A stretch of 64,000 bases of DNA from Hydrolagus colliei (taxonomy: Eukaryota): the NCBI GenBank assembly GCA_035084275.1, contig CM068746.1, positions 15,934,001 to 15,998,000 of the forward strand, written 5' to 3'. The position numbers and the translations under genes were made by a program. Below are positions 2,763-56,850 of this stretch, one piece after another; position 1 is the stretch's first letter; every line of letters starts with the position of its first letter. Under the pieces are notes generated by a model that was not told the origin of the DNA, made no database searches, and saw only the letters and a list, made by a program, of their open reading frames with translations.

Positions 2763-2891
2763 TAATGTCTCCATATTTTTTCCTATAGTTTCAAAATATT
2801 TTAGCCATGTTCAAAACATTTTAGCCATGGCTTTCCCTTTTTATATTTCAGCTGACCTCCTGCCTCTCCACACAGGATGAAACTGCTCAGA

Positions 2892-3181
2892 ATAATAATA
2901 AAAATAATAGGTGCATTTGATGTTTCACGGTCTTCTAGATATCTCAAAAGTGCTTCACAGAATATACTGTAAAGTGAATTGACTATTTTTGTCACTGTAA
3001 TGTGGCAGCCAATTGCACACAGCAGTGTCCCACAAACAGTTGTGGATTGAGTGACCAAATTATTGTTTTTTTGAGGGATTATTATCAGGCATGTGTGGTA
3101 AGGAAATATACCCAAGGTTTCGCCCTGCCAGGTCTCTTGCTTACGAAGCGAGTGCTGTAACTACTGAGCTACAGGGCTCCA
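2892..3181 (-). mobile_element. tRNA-headed Deu-type SINE
   Basis: Reverse complement of the family consensus: ggagccctgtagctcagt head, tgtttgtgggacactgctgtg core, L2-like tail with (TTA)n. Confidence 0.85.
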
Positions 3182-3614
3182 AAAGGATATTAATAATAAG
3201 AAGAATAATTCTTGCATTTGATATAGCGCTTTTCACGTTATCTCAAAGCGCTTCACAGAATATACTGTAAAGTTAAGTGACTGTATATTTGTGGGTGAAA
3301 CCAAGAGAGAAACAGTAGGATAAACATGTTGGAAAACAACAGCTGTCTGGGTACAATGGGTTGTTGGTTAGTTGTCAAGAACAGGAAGAGCTACTCGTTC
3401 CATTGTTGAATGATGATACGGGAGAGACATATAAATAATTTGGCATTAAGATGGTCTGAAACCTTTTCTCAGAACCATTATATTTGTTATTTACAAATAA
3501 TTAACTAAACGAAGTTCAGTGGCTCAATCAGTTTGCATCAAAATTGTTTTCTCCAAGAAAATACACCTACTGATCAGTAAAAGCTGATATACTGATATAC
3601 TGATCAGTATATTA

Positions 3615-5962: not shown

Positions 5963-6248
5963 AAAATGGGGGTGGAGGAAAAAAATGTTAAGATGATAAC
6001 ATATTTAACTAAGGTTTATGACTAATTTTAGAAGAGATTTCACAGGAAATTTATTTAATCTGTGGAACTTTTTTTTCCCCAGAATTAGAAGCATCATGTA
6101 AGTTACATTTTCAACAACAACTTATGTTTATATAGCGCCCTCCATGCTGGACGGCGTCTCAGAGTGCTTCAAACCAGAGTATGGTACTGTACTGTGTGTG
6201 CCGGAGGCGTTTAACAGAGCTTCTTTTATTCATGTTATTGTAATACTG

Positions 6249-6511
6249 TAATAATAATCTTTGTATTTGATATAGCGCTTTTCAGATCTTCTAGACGTCT
6301 CAAAGCGCTTCACAGAATATACTGTAATGTGACTTGACTGTATTTGTGGGCGAAACGGCAGCCAATTGCGGTGTCCCACAAACAGTCGCAGATTGAAATG
6401 ACCAATTTTTTTGGAGGGATTATTATCAGGCATGTAGCATAACGAAACTTGCCCAAGGTTTTGCCCTGACTGGAACTGAACCCAGGTCTCTCGCTTGCAA
6501 GGTGAGTGCTC
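6249..6511 (-). mobile_element. tRNA-headed Deu-type SINE (5'-truncated)
   Basis: Reverse complement of the family tail and core. Confidence 0.85.
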
Positions 6512-6557
6512 CGGTTTTCCAGAAGGGACCCCCTTGCCTTATTATAATAATATATTC

Positions 6558-6888
6558 TGTGGAGTCCTGGAGCTCAGTGGTTAGAGCACTTGCCGTACAA
6601 GCGTGAGACGTGTGTTCGAATTCAGGCAGGTCAGGGTGGAACCTTGGGCGAGTTTCCTAATAATAATAATAATAATAACGCCTAATAATAATCCCTCCAA
6701 AAAAAGCCACAATAATAAAACTGGTCATTTCAATCCACGGCTGTTTGTGGGACGCCGCTGTGCGCAACTGGCCGCCGAGTTTCACCTCCAGACATACAGT
6801 CAACCCACTTTACAGCACATTCTGTGAAGCGCTTTGAGACGTCTGGAAGACTTTGAAAAGCGCCATGTCAAATGCAGGGATTACTATT
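6558..6888 (+). mobile_element. tRNA-headed Deu-type SINE, full length
   Basis: A-box-like ggagctcagtggttagagc, B-box-like gttcgaattc, core gtttgtgggacgccgctgtgcgcaactggc, tail aagcgctttgagac...gaaaagcgcc...caaatgca. Confidence 0.88.
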
Positions 6889-7102
6889 AAAGCCAGTAAA
6901 ATACTGTAAACCCTGCAGCCTCTCACATGTGGGGACATTAAAGGGCAGTGAATAGAGGACACTGACTAGCAGAGCACGGTAACTAACCAGAGAGCCGAGG
7001 AGACAGTGAGCAATCCCATTGCTATGGTGCTAATGTGGCTGGAAGGCCCGGCCAGGGAGGGAAACCAAAGCAGTGACAGGACCGGGTGAGATGCGGACAA
7101 AC

Positions 7103-27960: not shown

Positions 27961-28136
27961 GGCTCTGTTTGCCTACATAAATCCAACTAACTTTATTCCA
28001 AAAGGGGCTTTGAAGCATTTTGATACTGTAAGATGCTCTATCAAATGCAAGTATTTTCCATTAGAATTTCACCAGTGTTAAACTACAAAACTTACTATCT
28101 CCCCTTTCTATCCACCTGATCTCCCTATCATATTAG

Positions 28137-28492
28137 ATGAATGTGAACCTGGAACAGCTTCTGCAGCTCACTCACCAGGCAGTAAAGAATGTGCATTGAA
28201 CAAACCTGGACTTGGGATGAAGGCTGGGAACACTCATCATAAGCAAACTATGAATCTGAAAGGCAGCAGGAAAGTGACTAAGAGGAAACTGGTAGAGGTG
28301 AACTCGCTTTCGGAATGCAACGGTGAGAATGAGCCACGGCAGAAGTCTGTTAAAATGACTGACGTGAAGTGCATCCTATCGAAGAGTAAAATAGGCATGA
28401 AAATGCCAGTATCATCAAAGGGAGGCAAAAATGCAGCCAAGAATAAGTTAATTCCTGGACAAGGAAAGTTGACACATTTTTTTAGAATGTAA
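28137..28492 (+). CDS. PARPBP: PARPBP last coding exon with C-terminal PIP box (QGKLTHFF, 28460-28483)
   Basis: tattag|AT GAA TGT... in frame with ORF 28196; ends KLIPGQGKLTHFFRM*, vs human KLISGQAKLTQFFRL*. Total CDS 1782 nt = 593 aa. Confidence 0.93.
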
Positions 28493-28900: not shown

Positions 28901-28944
28901 TTACCAGCATGGCCTATATACTCTTCCCAGCATACATCTGAGCA
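28901..28944 (-). CDS. PMCH: PMCH exon 3, encoding the MCH ring
   Basis: cccacag|TG CTC AGA TGT ATG CTG GGA AGA GTA TAT AGG CCA TGC TGG TAA = (M)LRCMLGRVYRPCW*. Confidence 0.97.
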
Positions 28945-30263
28945 CTGTGGGACAAAATAGAAAAGATGCGTTAATTTAGATAAATAATCAAATTGTCATC
29001 CTTGCATTTGATGGAGTGCAGCAGGAGGACTGCATTCCAGTGGCAGCCTCGACTATGAGTTCAAAGTCCCAGTGTGAGGCTTAAACCCACAGCCTTCTGA
29101 CTCAAAGGTGAGAGAGCTAACAAATTGAGTTTGAGGCAAATTGTCACGTTGTTCAATGCAATTGAGTTTTATACAACAGCATCACGCAACCTTTGTGTTT
29201 CTGGATGTTTATGAAAATATGGTTACAAGGTCATGGGCCAATTGTGTACTTTGAGTTCTTGAGCAACTCTGGACAGATCATAAACTGGATTATCCGGTGT
29301 TTAGGGATGTGCAGGTAGGTCGAGAATGAGAGAATAGAGAATTTTAGGCAATTAAATCAACAGTCATGCAATGACAATTTCAAAGAATATGGTAATCCTA
29401 TTAGCTGTATAATAATCCTTGCATTTAAACAGAATGTGGTAATCCTGCTAGCTGTATAAAGAAAATTTGCCTCTAAATGACAAAAAGAAATACTTTGGTT
29501 ATGCATCAACGGCAGGAAGGTACACAATGTATTATCCAGACAGCCACAGTAAATAAATTCAATAATTGGCAGGCAAAATCATCAGATGGCTTCTCTTTTT
29601 ACGCAGTACAGACCAATCCACTACTGCATGTCATAATTCTAAATTTTGGATACTTTGCATGAGAAAATATGTGGCCATATTGCATCCAGCAGGATTGTGA
29701 TATTAATCTTATATTGGCACTATCCCTACATTATTGGCCGGGTCCTGGAAGCCATTGAGTCTGTTCTATTGAATTATGGCAGATCTTTTAATCCCATTTC
29801 CAAACTTTGTTTTCCTCCAGATCACTTGATAATCATACTGCCCGAGTATCTCCATCTTTTAAACATCTCAATTCATTTTGCATTCACGGACTTCAGGGGT
29901 AATGAATACCTAATTTTCGAAACCCTGTGTTTGTGGAGGGGGGGGGGATAAAAAAAATCTTGAGTTCTTTATTGTAGGTAGATTGTCTGTTGAACTGCCA
30001 CACAGAAATGGAGCAATTCCAACACACCCCCTTGAAGAAAAGGGCAAAGATTTATCTAAAAGTGTGGCGTTAATCTTGCATGGGGGAAGAACACTCTTGT
30101 GGCAAAAGTTAAAGCCCAGAATAAGTAAATTAATAAATAAAATAATTAATAAATTGATGCAATTTGAACAATTTTTCTTGTTGCAGCACACTCTTCAGTC
30201 ACTCCACATCACTACCCGACTGGTATTTCTGATTGACTGGTCAACAAAATGCAAAGTACTTAC

Positions 30264-30510
30264 TGTCAAAATTTCTTCTGCTTACAGGAAATTTGCTTAT
30301 ACGTTCCATATCACCAGAACCTCTCCGAGTTTCTGTTGTCTCAGTCTGCTGTAGATTGTCAGATAATTCCGATTTGCTCGAGCCTTTGATTGCAAAATAA
30401 GGTGGTTGTTTCACTGTGGCTTTCAACGGTAGAGCGGATTTGAGCAGACTTTGGTTGGCAGAGCTAAGATGATCCTGAATGGTTTTCCAGTCTAACTTGT
30501 AACCCAAATC
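30264..30510 (-). CDS. PMCH: PMCH exon 2 (NGE-like, NEI-like peptides and start of MCH)
   Basis: tgttaag|GAT TTG...TTT GAC A|gtaag. 247 nt, ...PYFAIK-GSSKSELSDNLQQTETTET-RR-GSGDMERISKFPVS-RR-NFD. Confidence 0.95.
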
Positions 30511-31735
30511 CTTAACAGAAAAGAAGAATGGATGCATAAAGCAGTAGGTCTTATTAATGCAGTGTCACTGAAAGGGTTTCACCACTAATTGAGGTAGGTT
30601 TTACTGATGAACTTAACATGTTGGTATTTCAGCAGAAGGAGATTTGTGGAAGAACCTTTACCAAACCATTGTGACAACAGAGTTGCTGCTCCCCCACCGT
30701 CCCCTCCACCAGAATTAATTGAATGGCTGTTGTCTACTTGTTGGCAAGCAGAGTGATGCAAGTCGATTTACAAGTCTGCCTTTTAGCTAGGGAATAGTAA
30801 GCGAAACGAGAAGACTGAAACAAACATAGGGATGCAAAACAATTATTTAACCTTTCAGAAAGATGGATGAATCTTTCAATTATTTCTCTGTTTGGGCTAA
30901 TGTGCTGCTTTTGGTTGTTGTTGCCCTTTTATTGGACAACATTTAATCACTTGCCTTGAAAATGTTTCTTGATCGTGGGATTTAAAACAAAACGATATTT
31001 GCTATTTAATATTCTATATAAGACACTATCCTTGAGTCCAAATTCAATAATAATAATCCTTGTATTTGCTATAGCACTTCATGTCTTCTAGACGTCTCAA
31101 ACGCTTCATAGAATATACTGTAAAGTGAATTGACTGTATATTTGAAATTAATTAAAAATGTTGGTGCATGAATAATATATTTTTTTAAAAACACCCCAAC
31201 TACTCCAGCGTGTTTCTGTTCATCATTTTCTTTTAATAAAAAGTCAGTCAGGGCAATGTTTGGAGCATTACAAATGGCTTCAGTATTCTGGGTGGGAGAG
31301 AGGAAAAATAGCCAACATTCACACTCCTGATCATCCAATGTTTTTTTTAAGAGAGAATGGCTGTGTCAACATTGGATGAGAATAGAATCGAGGTTGGCTG
31401 CAATGTTCCTCATAGTAGAATGGCCATTCGAAGCTCGCACATCAAGAGTGGCATTTTGGCTGAGGAACAGGATATGACTGTAAGCATTAATGAAATTACA
31501 CTACAGCATGAGAAACTGCCTCAGGAGAGCTGGGCATATTTTTTTTCTCTGACCGAATTATTATTTATCAAGGTCTAGCACGCGATGATTCAGGAGTTGG
31601 AATTGGTACTAGCCACTCTGAATCATAAACAACGACTCACTCCAGTAGCATTCTGTCATGACAACCTGCAAGAACAACAATCCAACATTGCCCAGAAGCA
31701 GATTTTGTGATGTACATTAAGGAAGTTAACAATAC

Positions 31736-32081
31736 TAATGATGATCCTTGCATTCGATACAGTGCTTTTCACGTTTTCTAGATGTCTCAAAGCGCTTCAT
31801 AGAATATACTGTAAAGTGAATTGACTGCATATCTGTGGGTGAAATGTGGCAGCCAAGTGGCGCACACTGTGTCCCACAAACAGTCTTCGACAAACAGTCC
31901 TTGGCTACTGTGTGGAGGGACAAACAGTCAAGCAGTCGGTGGATTGAAGTGACCAATATTTTTGGGGGAGGGATTATTATTAGGTGTGTGGAGTAAAGAA
32001 ACTTGCCCAGAGTTTCACCCTGACTGGAATTTAACTCAGTTCTCTCGCTTGCAAGACGAATGCTCTAACCATTGAGCTACA
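31736..32081 (-). mobile_element. tRNA-headed Deu-type SINE in PMCH intron 1
   Basis: Reverse complement of the family consensus with a ~50-bp internal insertion flanked by repeated acaaacagtc. Confidence 0.85.
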
Positions 32082-32263
32082 GCAGATAGCTTTGTGATGA
32101 CACTTCACTAAGTCACTCTAACTGACTCAAATAGAGAATCACTGTATGTAATGTCCAGATTTTCTTTTTGACATTTTACCAACTTCTTTTGATTAAATAT
32201 TTTGAAGTTTACATTTCATTACAAATGACAACATGAAAGTGACAGGATCAAAAGACAACTTAC

Positions 32264-32485
32264 CGTCATGACAAAGACTTCTGGGTTTATTTTGTCATCC
32301 AACAGTGGGTAATACTTGAATAACAGTGAAGGCATTGCACTTACTGGTAGGTCAACCTTCACCGGGTTAAAATCATTTTGTGGCACCTTGTTTTCTTGCA
32401 ACCATTCCACAGATTTTGCAGAAGCAGATAGCTTTGTGATGACCAAAACCGAGAAGAAGAGAACAGTGTACGCTGACACAGCCAT
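32264..32485 (-). CDS. PMCH: PMCH exon 1 (signal peptide)
   Basis: aaaATGG at 32485; 74 codons MAVSAYTVLFFSVLVITKLSASAKS...VFVMT|gtaag. Total precursor 170 aa. Confidence 0.92.
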
Positions 32486-34815: not shown

Positions 34816-36363
34816 CAGTGGTCCTCAACCTTTTTCAGTAATGTACCCCTTGTTAATTTTCAACATTATTTTTTCAATATTTTTTCATAATTTTTCAACG
34901 ATGTAACAGAATGGGTGGACGATGGTAGTGCAGTTGATGTAGTTTACATGGACTTTCAAAAGGCATTTGACAAAGTGCCGCATGAGAGGCTTATTAGGAA
35001 AATAGAGGCCCACAGCGTTAAGTGGACAGTGGTAGCGTGGATCCACAACTGGCTGCGAGACAGAAAGCAGAGAGTTGTGCCGAGCGGCTGCTTTTCAGAC
35101 TGGAGGGAAGTGTGCAGTGGCGACCCCCAGGGATCAGTTTTGGGACCACTGCTCTTTTTAATATACATTAATGATTTGGATTTAAGTTTAGGGAGTACGG
35201 TTTCCAAATTTGCAGATGATACTAAGTTAGGAAGAATAGTAAATAGTGAGGAGGATAGTAGACATATGCAAGAGGATATAGATAAAATGGTAAAGTGGCA
35301 GACACATGGCAGATGAAGTTTAATACAGAGAAGTGTGAGGTGATACAGTTTGGGAGAAGAAATGAGGGGAGGCAATGTAGGCTAGATAGTACAATTTAAA
35401 ATTTTACAATTTTGTGTGAAGGAACAGAGAGACCTGGGGATTTGTGTTAGTGACTCTTTGAAAGTGGCAGGACAGGTAGACAAAGCTGTTAAGAAGGCAT
35501 ATGGGATACTAGGCTTTATAAATACGGGTATAGAATACAAAGGTCAGGAAGTGCTGATTAACTTCTATAAGACTTTGGTTAGGCCTCAGCTGGAGTACTG
35601 TGTCCAATTCTGGTCACCACACTTTAGGAAGGATGCAGAGGAGATTTACTAGGATGGTACCAGGAATGAGGGACTTCAGCTACAAGGAAAGGCTAGATAG
35701 GCTAGGATTATTCTCTCTAGAACAAAGAAGATTGAGAGGAGACCTGATAGACGTTTATAAGATTATGAGAGGTTTTGACAGGGTGAATAGGGAAAGACTG
35801 TTTCCACTAGTGGGTGAATCAGTGACGCGTGGTCACAGATTTAAAATAGTTTCAAAACGAAGCAGAGGGGAGCTGAGGAGAAATGTTTTCACTCAACGGG
35901 TTGTTCGAATTTGGAATGCATTGCCTGAAAAGGTGGTGGAGACAGATTCCATAACAGCTTTTAAAAGGGAACTAGATCTTTATTTAGGAAGAGCAGGTCT
36001 GTTAGGTTATGGGGAGAAAGCTGGGCAGTGGGATTGAGTTGCTCTGATCAAAGAGCCGGCACAGACTAGATGGGCCGAATGGCCTCCTTTTGTGCCATAT
36101 AATTCTATGATTATCGTGTGCTCCCATCCAACCACATACACACACACACCACCCACCTCATTCCACTTGCATTTTATGACCAAGCTTTTCTTATATAACA
36201 AAACAACTAGTACAAAACGAGGGGAATAACAATTAAATATACAATTTGTAAGGCGACAAAATGCTAAATAAGAGCCAAATAAATCAATGTACCACCACCT
36301 GTACCCACTCGAAGTAATTTTGTACCCCCTGATACAACATGTACTCCTGGTTGAGAACCGCTG
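34816..36363. mobile_element. hAT-Charlie-type MITE carrying a CR1 insertion
   Basis: TIRs CAGTGGTCCTCAACC / GGTTGAGAACCGCTG; 8-bp TSD ttctcgac / ttctagat, matching the NTCTAGAN-type target. Confidence 0.85.
34890..36112 (+). mobile_element. CR1 LINE, 5'-truncated RT and 3' UTR
   Basis: VDVVYMDFQKAFDKVPH, PQGSVLGPLLFLIYINDL, KFADDTKL, LVRPQLEYCVQFWSP, LEQRRLRGDLI; ends aattctatgatt. Confidence 0.95.
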
Positions 36364-44807: not shown

Positions 44808-44873
44808 TCATATTCTGTAATTTCTGTTGACACTACTGGTATTACCTCGGCTAGAGTTCTTCAAGACAGTTTC
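44808..44873 (-). CDS. IGF1: IGF1 last coding exon (Ea peptide end; mammalian exon 6 equivalent)
   Basis: ttatag|GAA ACT GTC TTG AAG AAC...AGA ATA TGA = ETVLKNSSRGNTSSVNRNYRI*, vs human EVHLKNASRGSAGNKNYRM*. Confidence 0.93.
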   Translation of the reverse strand, partial: ETVLKNSSRGNTSSVNRNYRI

Positions 44874-45608: not shown

Positions 45609-45643
45609 CTCTTTGTTTTTCTGCCAACTAATTGCTTTATATT
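45609..45643 (-). CDS. IGF1: Candidate 35-nt alternative IGF1 cassette exon (exon-5-like)
   Basis: ttctctgttttcag|AATATAAAGCAATTAGTTGGCAGAAAAACAAAGAG|gtgagc; open in phase 0: NIKQLVGRKTK(R). No transcript evidence. Confidence 0.45.
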
Positions 45644-46556: not shown

Positions 46557-46723
46557 CCTTTGTCCTTTATCACTGTGGGGTTGTGTGCGTGCAGACGCCT
46601 CTGGCTTTGCTGGTTTTGCACAATACATCTCCAACAACTTGAGATCACAGCTCTGGAAGCAACATTCGTCCACAATCCCTCTATTTGCCCGCCTTGTAGT
46701 AGGCCTGTAGCCTGTCGGTTTGT
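46557..46723 (-). CDS. IGF1: IGF1 exon encoding C, A, D domains and E start (mammalian exon 4)
   Basis: atcacag|AC AAA CCG...CAA AGG|gtaagg. 167 nt, (N)[55 protein letters not shown]. Confidence 0.97.
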
Positions 46724-50697: not shown

Positions 50698-50851
50698 TGA
50701 AATAAAAGCCTCGATTACCACACACAAATTGGAGAGTATCCACCAAATCTGAACCGCAAAGAGTCTCTGGATTGGCTTCCACTCCACTCAGGATTAGCAC
50801 ACACAGCGTCAGGTAGAAGAGATGAGGGTAGGACACAAAAGCCATCCTAAC
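50698..50851 (-). CDS. IGF1: IGF1 exon encoding signal peptide and B domain (mammalian exon 3)
   Basis: tttgcag|GTT AGG ATG...TTC A|gtagg. 154 nt, [51 protein letters not shown]. Confidence 0.97.
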
Positions 50852-53300: not shown

Positions 53301-54691
53301 TTCTGCACTTCTCTTCCTCCCTTATTTACTCCACAGGGTAGTTACATTGCTCATGGATGTGGTCCACTTGAGTTGTCCTCTTTGTCACAGATATTCAGTA
53401 CCACATACCCATTTGATAAATCACTTCTTACAATACCTCCAGCCTACTTCTTCCAAATCTGTGTCCTGTTACCCATTTCCCTTCCACTACACCTTCAATC
53501 ATTTTCCTATCCCTTGTCTCCCTGCCCCCCAACTTGGCTCTGAATCCCTGAGTGTCCAGCTCCTCGGGACGTCCTTTTCACATGAAAGGTGCTCTACAAA
53601 TGTAATTTGTTGTTGTTGTTATCAATTACATCTGCCTACATGTTGGCCACTGGCTGAAATATATGTTTGAATAGCATTTCTACCTCTCTTATGTGACAAA
53701 GTGTTCCCAACTGCTGCTGAAGCTCATAAACTTTGAATTAAAACAAGCAATCCGAGCCACTGCCTACATGTGTGGTCATCCCTGGCACATAAACTATGCA
53801 AGAATTCCAAAATTACACACAACGCAGGCATCAGCTAATGAACCGGATCCCTTGCTCAAGTTCAACAAAGACAAACATGCACTTACTTTAGTGATTTACT
53901 TAAGAAGTAAGGCAAATTTTCACTCATCACCTCATTTGCACTCTTGGCAAATCTGCTCGATTCCTGTCAAGCTGGCTGGCCTTTTGCCTGTGCTATTTCT
54001 TTTAAGTTATTTCAGGTAAAAATGTTTTGCATTTTCCACAATCCAAATGTTATCTTGTTTATAAAGAATCAATAACTGGCTAATACATGACCAGGGCTGG
54101 CAGTTAGTTCGTAATTGATTGAATGATTAACAAATCAGTTGTCCATCTCTAAACATCAACAAAACTACTTTATGACTGGCTTTCCTGCCCTGGGGTTTGT
54201 TTTAAATCAATTGAATATCGTTTCTGAATATCTTTACCAACCTCGAAACGTAATCACACCACTTACCAACTGTAATCTGCCACAATCATCAAATTCACTT
54301 GACTTTGCTGTGCGCCTCTCAAGCTCCCTCAACATTCCGCATCAATCCTCAGTGAAGCTAACACACTGCGCGCTCGCTTCCAGTGTAACCTGCTTTCAGC
54401 CAGTATCACCCATTGCATCAAGAACAACAACTTGCATTCATATAACGCCGCTGATTGCAGGGTAGCTCCCCAGAACCCTTGACGATGAAGGAGCATGGCT
54501 CCGAGCCTGCGTTGAGGGTGGGGGGTGGAGGGGGAAGGATGCGACTGTAGGATTTCGAACTCTGTTCTTTATTTGCTAAAACTTCAAATAGACAGTTCAC
54601 CATCACTTGCTGAACAAGGGTTGCTGGATGGACTGATTGAGTGAGGGTGTGCATTAATGGCTTTTCCGTTGGGTCCCCAGTATACACTTAC

Positions 54692-56790: not shown

Positions 56791-56850
56791 CTTAAAGACT
56801 TCTGTCAGGCAGCAAGAGATGCATCTGATTTGTGTCTGTGTCTGTTCCAT
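56791..56850 (-). CDS. IGF1: IGF1 exon 1 coding part
   Basis: gtgATGG...TTT AAG|gtgac. MEQTQTQIRCISCCLTEVFK, vs human [21 protein letters not shown]. Core CDS 447 nt = 148 aa. Confidence 0.88.

Follow-up and report, generated by a model that had tools for sequence, protein, structure and literature searches.

The usual cut site of IGF1, which gives the 70-residue form of the hormone in bony vertebrates, is missing from the precursor encoded in the Hydrolagus colliei DNA analyzed here, and the sequence indicates that the hormone is probably released as a longer molecule. In the records surveyed, sharks and rays have partly lost that site as well. The DNA is a 64-kb stretch of contig CM068746.1 of assembly GCA_035084275.1 (the window), which carries a true igf1 gene on its minus strand. 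The exons of this gene and its neighbor are as follows, where P0001 is an independent spliced IGF1 record (from a 2,332-base contig).

56791..56850, minus strand: igf1 leader exon 1, 20 codons from the ATG to a GT donor, phase 0, with the ATG and donor read directly.
54267..54335, minus strand: alternative igf1 leader exon, 23 codons, with a 100% match to the P0001 N-terminus and a GTAAGT donor.
50698..50851, minus strand: igf1 B exon (end of the signal peptide and B domain), 154 nt, phase 1, identified by Pfam PF00049 (E 7.9e-07), its splice sites and its match to P0001.
46557..46723, minus strand: igf1 exon C, 167 nt, coding for the C, A and D domains plus the shared portion of the E peptide, Pfam PF00049 (E 9.6e-09).
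44808..44873, minus strand: last coding exon of igf1 (Ea type), 20/21 residues identical to P0001; its two N-glycosylation sequons lie at 44858 and 44843.
28901..32485, minus strand: pmch, the neighbor downstream of igf1, identified by Pfam Pro-MCH (E 3.7e-09) and tblastn with P0152 (E 3.5e-11), with its exons read.

All the igf1 exons (both leaders, B, C and Ea) have canonical splice sites, and the coding span is only about 12 kb. The match of leader exon 1 is weak (tblastn with the IGF1 N-termini of Heterodontus and Scyliorhinus, E 0.05–0.1). The two alternative leaders resemble the class 1 and class 2 IGF1 transcripts of mammals, and P0001 uses the second (54335–54267). The spliced window protein is identical to P0001 at 150 of 151 residues, the sole difference being the last residue, and exon C matches at 55/55 residues; the junction residues and the Ea splice are therefore independently supported.

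The protein belongs to the insulin/IGF/relaxin family (PF00049), in which P0001 scores 64.1 bits against a cut-off of 23, and both window exons pass the same cut-off. The six Cys, Y24, Y31, Y59 (human Y60) and R36-R37 are all present, in agreement with an earlier sequence-only reading of this DNA, which had described the six cysteines, Tyr24/31/60 and the C-domain RR as intact. The close named relatives are all annotated as IGF1, and the last exon is of the Ea type with a sequon. A Pro-MCH exon is located 14 kb downstream on the same strand, and the adjoining pmch supports the orthology of igf1. In a tree of 28 rows, which are IGF1 only and include no IGF2 or IGF3, the window protein joins 11 elasmobranch rows (100/99) yet falls outside them (99/97). 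We infer that this igf1 gene belongs to a cartilaginous fish that is neither a shark nor a ray, namely a holocephalan. An IGF2 or IGF3 identity was rejected in view of the named relatives, the Ea exon and the pmch synteny; Ala occupies the position of IGF2 Arg68, the E peptide is short and of the IGF1 type, and there is no second Pfam domain.

Several other features of the window were recorded. The wider gene order around igf1 includes parpbp and nup37. Frames resembling the first exon of nup37 (about 7260–7040, minus strand) and the last exon of parpbp (28082–28492, plus strand) gave no Pfam match; we take them to be these two genes, which would complete the usual igf1 neighborhood. In pmch exon 3 (28944–28901, minus strand), the Trp located after the second Cys is followed at once by TAA (28903–28901), so that the mature MCH has 17 residues; the MCH peptides known from other vertebrates run two residues further. 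The B domain (50770–50710, minus strand) has Asn at residue 1 and Ser8-Asp9 in place of Ala-Glu, unlike all 18 other records compared, and this region is presumably the contact region for IGF-binding proteins. A dispersed repeat of about 300 bases occurs in many copies throughout the window at 70–85% identity (e.g., 2891–3301, 6232–6900 and 34891–36037), together with what we take to be LINE-like reverse-transcriptase fragments.

The regions of the precursor that bear on cleavage near the D/E junction and within the hormone are given below.

46578..46616, minus strand: degenerate D/E junction of 13 residues, with K65 and K68 kept, Ala at human R71, Arg at R74 and Pro at R77.
46680..46706, minus strand: C domain R32-P-T-T-R36-R37-A-N-R40, by sequence a putative convertase site inside the hormone.

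The role of the pentabasic motif K65-X-X-K68-X-X-R71-X-X-R74-X-X-R77 in pro-IGF1 is stated in PMC3608916 and PMC5995926. In the window protein, the five positions read K, K, A, R and P, and Pro directly follows K68; as far as its letters go, the window gene is a real IGF1 orthologue in which this motif has broken down. The position of human R71 is encoded by GCG, Ala (46598–46596), two changes from any Arg codon, and that of human R77 by CCC, Pro (46580–46578), one change from Arg. The Arg at the position of human R74 (46589–46587) is kept and is residue 71 in the protein's own numbering. The 16-mer from the first Lys to the Asp aligns with human P0106 without gaps at 9/16 identical residues, a score reached in 0 of 100,000 shuffles. 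This register is the first-listed optimum in 12/12 global alignments with six references and the sole optimum in 11 of the 12, and HMMER against PDB 8eyr_C gives an identical register. Relative to human IGF1, two residues are missing immediately before the 16-mer and one in the C domain.

Since the numbering of the window protein itself puts the retained Arg at 71, an alternative register was considered, which places the window K-P-E-A-S-A-R on human K65–R71. It needs two gaps and is the first-listed optimum in none of the 12 alignments, and it is also countered by the gapless alignment of the shark sequences to the window in the first register. An assembly error was rejected as well because P0001 carries the same Ala and Pro at the junction. 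Thus, the codons, the alignment with P0106 and P0001 agree on the gapless 16-mer, with R71 replaced by Ala, R77 by Pro and R74 retained, as had been read from the letters at the outset. The accompanying statement that no R-X-X-R remains is correct at the D/E junction; elsewhere it fails, since the C domain contains R37-A-N-R40 and the C-terminus R-N-Y-R. The lone junction Arg is preceded by S-A and has no basic residue at P2, P4 or P6, with a Lys at P7 only. K68G/R74A/R77A changes were made in human pro-IGF1 with the design intent of preventing E-peptide cleavage (PMC6990632), and a monobasic cut by a convertase is less likely because the lone Arg matches the arrangement left by these changes.

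The survey of vertebrate IGF1 comprised 167 records, P0001 and 166 named ones, after 31 further matches lacking a usable name had been dropped; they are top-ranked representatives of 90%-identity clusters, many of them isoforms, and not independent species. Here, sites were counted as K/R-X-X-R with a P1' residue other than Pro, by distance from the last Cys. The first such site is at +9 to +11 in 150 of the 151 bony-vertebrate records and at +16 in the other, and at +5 in 14 of the 15 elasmobranch records and +14 in the other. In the window protein it is at +21, alone among the surveyed records. The claim that the convertase motif of the D/E junction is gone is upheld; in every one of the 151 bony-vertebrate records, by contrast, a K/R-X-X-R occurs no more than 16 residues past the last Cys. 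The exact pentabasic spacing is found in 143/151 bony-vertebrate records and 0/16 chondrichthyan records.

The arginine loss had been described as if peculiar to this gene, which the survey contradicts. R71 is absent in 15/15 shark and ray records (14 species), and all 15 have K65-P-Q-R68, where the next residue is Ala in 10, Leu in 4 and Pro in 1. The absence of R71 from these records and from the window indicates a trait of cartilaginous fishes, and the window, with its full loss of the site, is the extreme case among them. Among the 12 full-length elasmobranch records, R74-X-X-R77 is kept in 8 and missing in 4, and Arg is kept at R74 in 11. The predicted X2 isoforms of Pristis, Stegostoma and Rhincodon (P0015, P0016 and P0017) omit everything between the R74 region and the exon junction; these models imply an internal donor and leave K-P-Q-R as the sole nearby site. 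At the position equivalent to this shark donor, no GT is found in the window. Arg68 of IGF2 falls on the same Ala as human R71, which suggests that for both hormones the ancestral D/E site was probably the Arg lost here. Two bony vertebrates show independent single losses: Megalops atlanticus (tarpon, P0189) has the R77-to-Pro change of the window, and Geotrypetes seraphini (caecilian, P0037) has His for R71; both keep another K/R-X-X-R site. Among the homologs listed, P0001 represents the only holocephalan-type sequence cluster; nameless matches from a search of 50%-identity clusters were set aside. A 1995 paper on Squalus IGF may already have remarked on the shark site. No report on IGF1 processing in cartilaginous fishes was found in the literature searched, which covered few subscription journals, and passages of PMC2738950, PMC11392399 and PMC12702675 contain nothing bearing on it.

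The site at +21 is located at the end of exon C.

46557..46568, minus strand: K-G-Q-R, candidate replacement processing site, own residues 78–81, the first K/R-X-X-R after the last Cys.

This K-G-Q-R, which the sequence-only reading overlooked, lies 21 residues after the last Cys, seven after the Pro and ten downstream of the lone Arg. Its Arg is the last codon of exon C, and in the Ea form the next residue is Glu. Of the 12 full-length elasmobranch records, 10 carry K-G-[QE]-R. At the same place, the 151 bony-vertebrate records have K-X-X-K (116), R-X-X-K (31) or K-X-X-R (1), with 3 unmatched; Lys at P1 in 147/151 of them, against Arg in those elasmobranchs, marks the Arg as a trait of chondrichthyans. 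In Mobula and Hemitrygon the motif reads K-G-Q-V, which makes the Arg dispensable in these two, although R-I-Q-R is retained in both. The Arg codon, being the last of its exon, could also be conserved for other reasons, and K65 and K/R68 may owe their conservation to receptor binding instead of cleavage. A Lys at P4 without a basic P2 makes a weak furin site. Human IGF1 is cut at a 68-X-X-Arg71 site (PMC3720995, which prints Arg68, although the residue is Lys in P0106); as this site has Lys68, Lys at P4 can serve in IGF1. Two outcomes had been foreseen for the precursor, glycosylated pro-IGF1 or a monobasic cut. This pair is incomplete since K-G-Q-R offers a third, a predicted 80-residue form.

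The earlier proposal also assigned a role to the choice of E exon through a possible exon in the last intron.

45609..45643, minus strand: putative cassette exon, 35 nt, with a strong acceptor and an AG/GTGAG donor.

Inclusion of the cassette shifts the frame of the last exon, giving K-T-K-R, three residues and a stop, with both sequons lost; read-through of the cassette donor gives a stop directly after K-T-K-R. The cassette would yield a short, basic, unglycosylated E peptide and could be an Eb/Ec-like exon. Among acceptor–donor pairs 25–60 nt apart in 128 kb (both strands), it is unique, or one of three with a looser donor, under a filter set post hoc. It is absent from all 16 chondrichthyan records and has no transcript support. 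The letters do encode the KTKR that the cassette was said to add, but the putative exon of 35 nt shifts the frame, and KTKR cannot release mature IGF1. As a rescue cleavage site KTKR was rejected: it sits three residues before the new stop, and only those three would be trimmed. The further claim that E-exon choice would directly alter the secreted ligand is tenable only if K-G-Q-R stays uncut. K-G-Q-R lies upstream of the splice junction, so that, if it is cut, this choice would hardly alter the ligand; if it is uncut, the change made by the cassette would be one of glycosylation. The Ea sequon governs stability and secretion (PMC5995926); there are two Ea sequons in the window and one in 13/15 elasmobranch records.

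We tentatively favor, at somewhat less than even confidence, an explanation in which K-G-Q-R is substantially used and the products are an 80-residue "big IGF1" and a glycosylated 102-residue pro-IGF1. An Arg closes the D domain of IGF2 and of bony-vertebrate IGF1; it would have disappeared in the ancestor shared by all cartilaginous fishes. In its place, sharks and rays carry a K65-P-Q-R68 site, while the window lineage, with Lys68 followed by Pro, has lost Arg77 too. Furin-like convertases would be unable to release a 67–70 residue hormone efficiently and would cleave K-G-Q-R in a sizeable fraction of the precursor molecules, after which trimming of the Arg would leave the 80-residue form (about 8.9 kDa) without the glycosylated exon-specific tail. 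The remaining precursor would be secreted as the glycosylated 102-residue pro-IGF1. The computed masses are 7,806 Da for the 70-mer, 8,941 Da for the 80-mer and 11,475 Da for the 102-residue pro-IGF1 before sugars. Both long forms should signal because the receptor-binding core is intact. Pro-IGF1 activates IGF1R, but its glycosylation impairs the activation (PMC3608916). The partly processed big-IGF2 forms 87 and 104 make up 10–20% of serum IGF2 in the human circulation (PMC10439913).

A precursor that is essentially uncut would circulate as glycosylated 102-residue pro-IGF1, with E-exon choice setting the ligand. This would fit the lack of any site near the D/E junction and the two sequons of the Ea tail, against one in human (PMC5995926); uncut glycosylated pro-IGF1 is, moreover, the main form in mammalian muscle (PMC3608916), and K-G-Q-R may be too weak a site. 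However, K-G-Q-R followed by Glu shows the P4-Lys/P1-Arg pattern known from the D/E site of human IGF1 and is conserved among cartilaginous fishes, the impaired receptor activation noted above would burden such a hormone, and this locus has no proven alternative E exon; we therefore regard the uncut precursor as somewhat unlikely, although a serious contender. Taken together with substantial use of K-G-Q-R, it makes it fairly probable that long forms rather than a 70-mer or so leave the secretory pathway. The opposite outcome, an ordinary 70-residue IGF1, would follow if a monobasic or extracellular trypsin-like protease cut at the single junction Arg. Counting along the window protein, this Arg is residue 71, S69-A70 precede it as in human, a cut there gives exactly 70 residues, and it is among the residues kept in 11/12 full-length elasmobranch records. 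The agreement in length, however, is due to three upstream deletions, and the homologous human residue is R74; P2, P4 and P6 are all non-basic, the same arrangement was engineered to block cleavage of human pro-IGF1 (PMC6990632), and three elasmobranch isoform models splice the Arg out. Such a cut is judged unlikely.

Two further possibilities concern the C domain and the nature of the locus. Convertases might clip the C domain and produce a two-chain, insulin-like hormone, which is compatible with the other readings. The segment offers R-X-X-R plus a dibasic pair for which P6 is Arg and P1' is Ala, unlike 13/15 elasmobranch records, in which Pro follows the dibasic pair. Nevertheless, the C domain of human IGF2 has R-R-S-R, yet its solved mature form (1igl) is a single 67-residue chain, and clipping appears very improbable. 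It is harder still to credit an artefact or a paralogue, that is, sequencing errors or an igf2/igf3-like gene for which the human IGF1 motif would be the wrong yardstick. The A and D domains do align gaplessly with human IGF2, at 49.1 bits against 48.4 for IGF1. However, P0001 has the same residues and the Ala codon is two changes from Arg; the nearest named relatives are all IGF1, the Ea tail is of the IGF1 type and pmch adjoins. The loss also stands by either yardstick, since the processing Arg68 of IGF2 is likewise Ala.

A broader reading, which we consider rather doubtful, is that cartilaginous fishes as a class lack the standard 70-residue IGF1 and that the holocephalan-type lineage secretes only long, E-peptide-bearing IGF1. 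The D/E site would then have decayed or moved in several ways, with R71 lost in all, R74-X-X-R77 lost repeatedly, K-P-Q-R used in sharks and rays, and the remaining arginines spliced out in the isoform models. If true, this would provide a natural animal model for whether pro-IGF1 suffices for the whole job of the hormone. The IGF1 E peptide is a matter of continuing debate, in which it figures as waste, as a tether or as a component of the active ligand (PMC3608916), and a lineage living without the canonical site would be a natural test of its role. It would also follow that a "mature shark IGF1" whose ends are taken from human numbering might differ from the real hormone. So far, this is a sequence argument on a well-known hormone, and its R71 half is common to all cartilaginous fishes sampled, which tempers the surprise.

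Compared with the pro-IGF1 (Ea) of bony vertebrates, the window gene has the same two leaders, B exon, C-A-D-E exon, Ea exon and pmch neighbor, and its protein the same six Cys, Y24/Y31/Y60, R36-R37 and Ea sequon. It differs in lacking R71 and R77, in the Pro after K68, in a D domain two residues and a C domain one residue shorter, and in a first K/R-X-X-R at +21 instead of +9 to +11. With elasmobranch IGF1 (15 records, 14 species; 63–71% identity to P0001) it shares the missing R71, the short D domain and the K-G-Q-R at the end of exon C, whereas K-P-Q-R (15/15) and R-X-X-R77 (8/12 full-length) are both missing in the window. The engineered K68G/R74A/R77A pro-IGF1 (PMC6990632) is similar in its single junction Arg after S-A with Lys at P7 only; in contrast, the window protein is natural, its lone Arg is homologous to R74 and not R71, and a further K-X-X-R lies ten residues downstream. 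Pro-IGF2 has a D domain of equal length and aligns gaplessly up to Glu67, and big-IGF2(87/104) is a precedent for circulating long forms (PMC10439913). However, IGF2 keeps Arg68 and yields a 67-mer, and its E domain is unrelated to the E peptide of the window.
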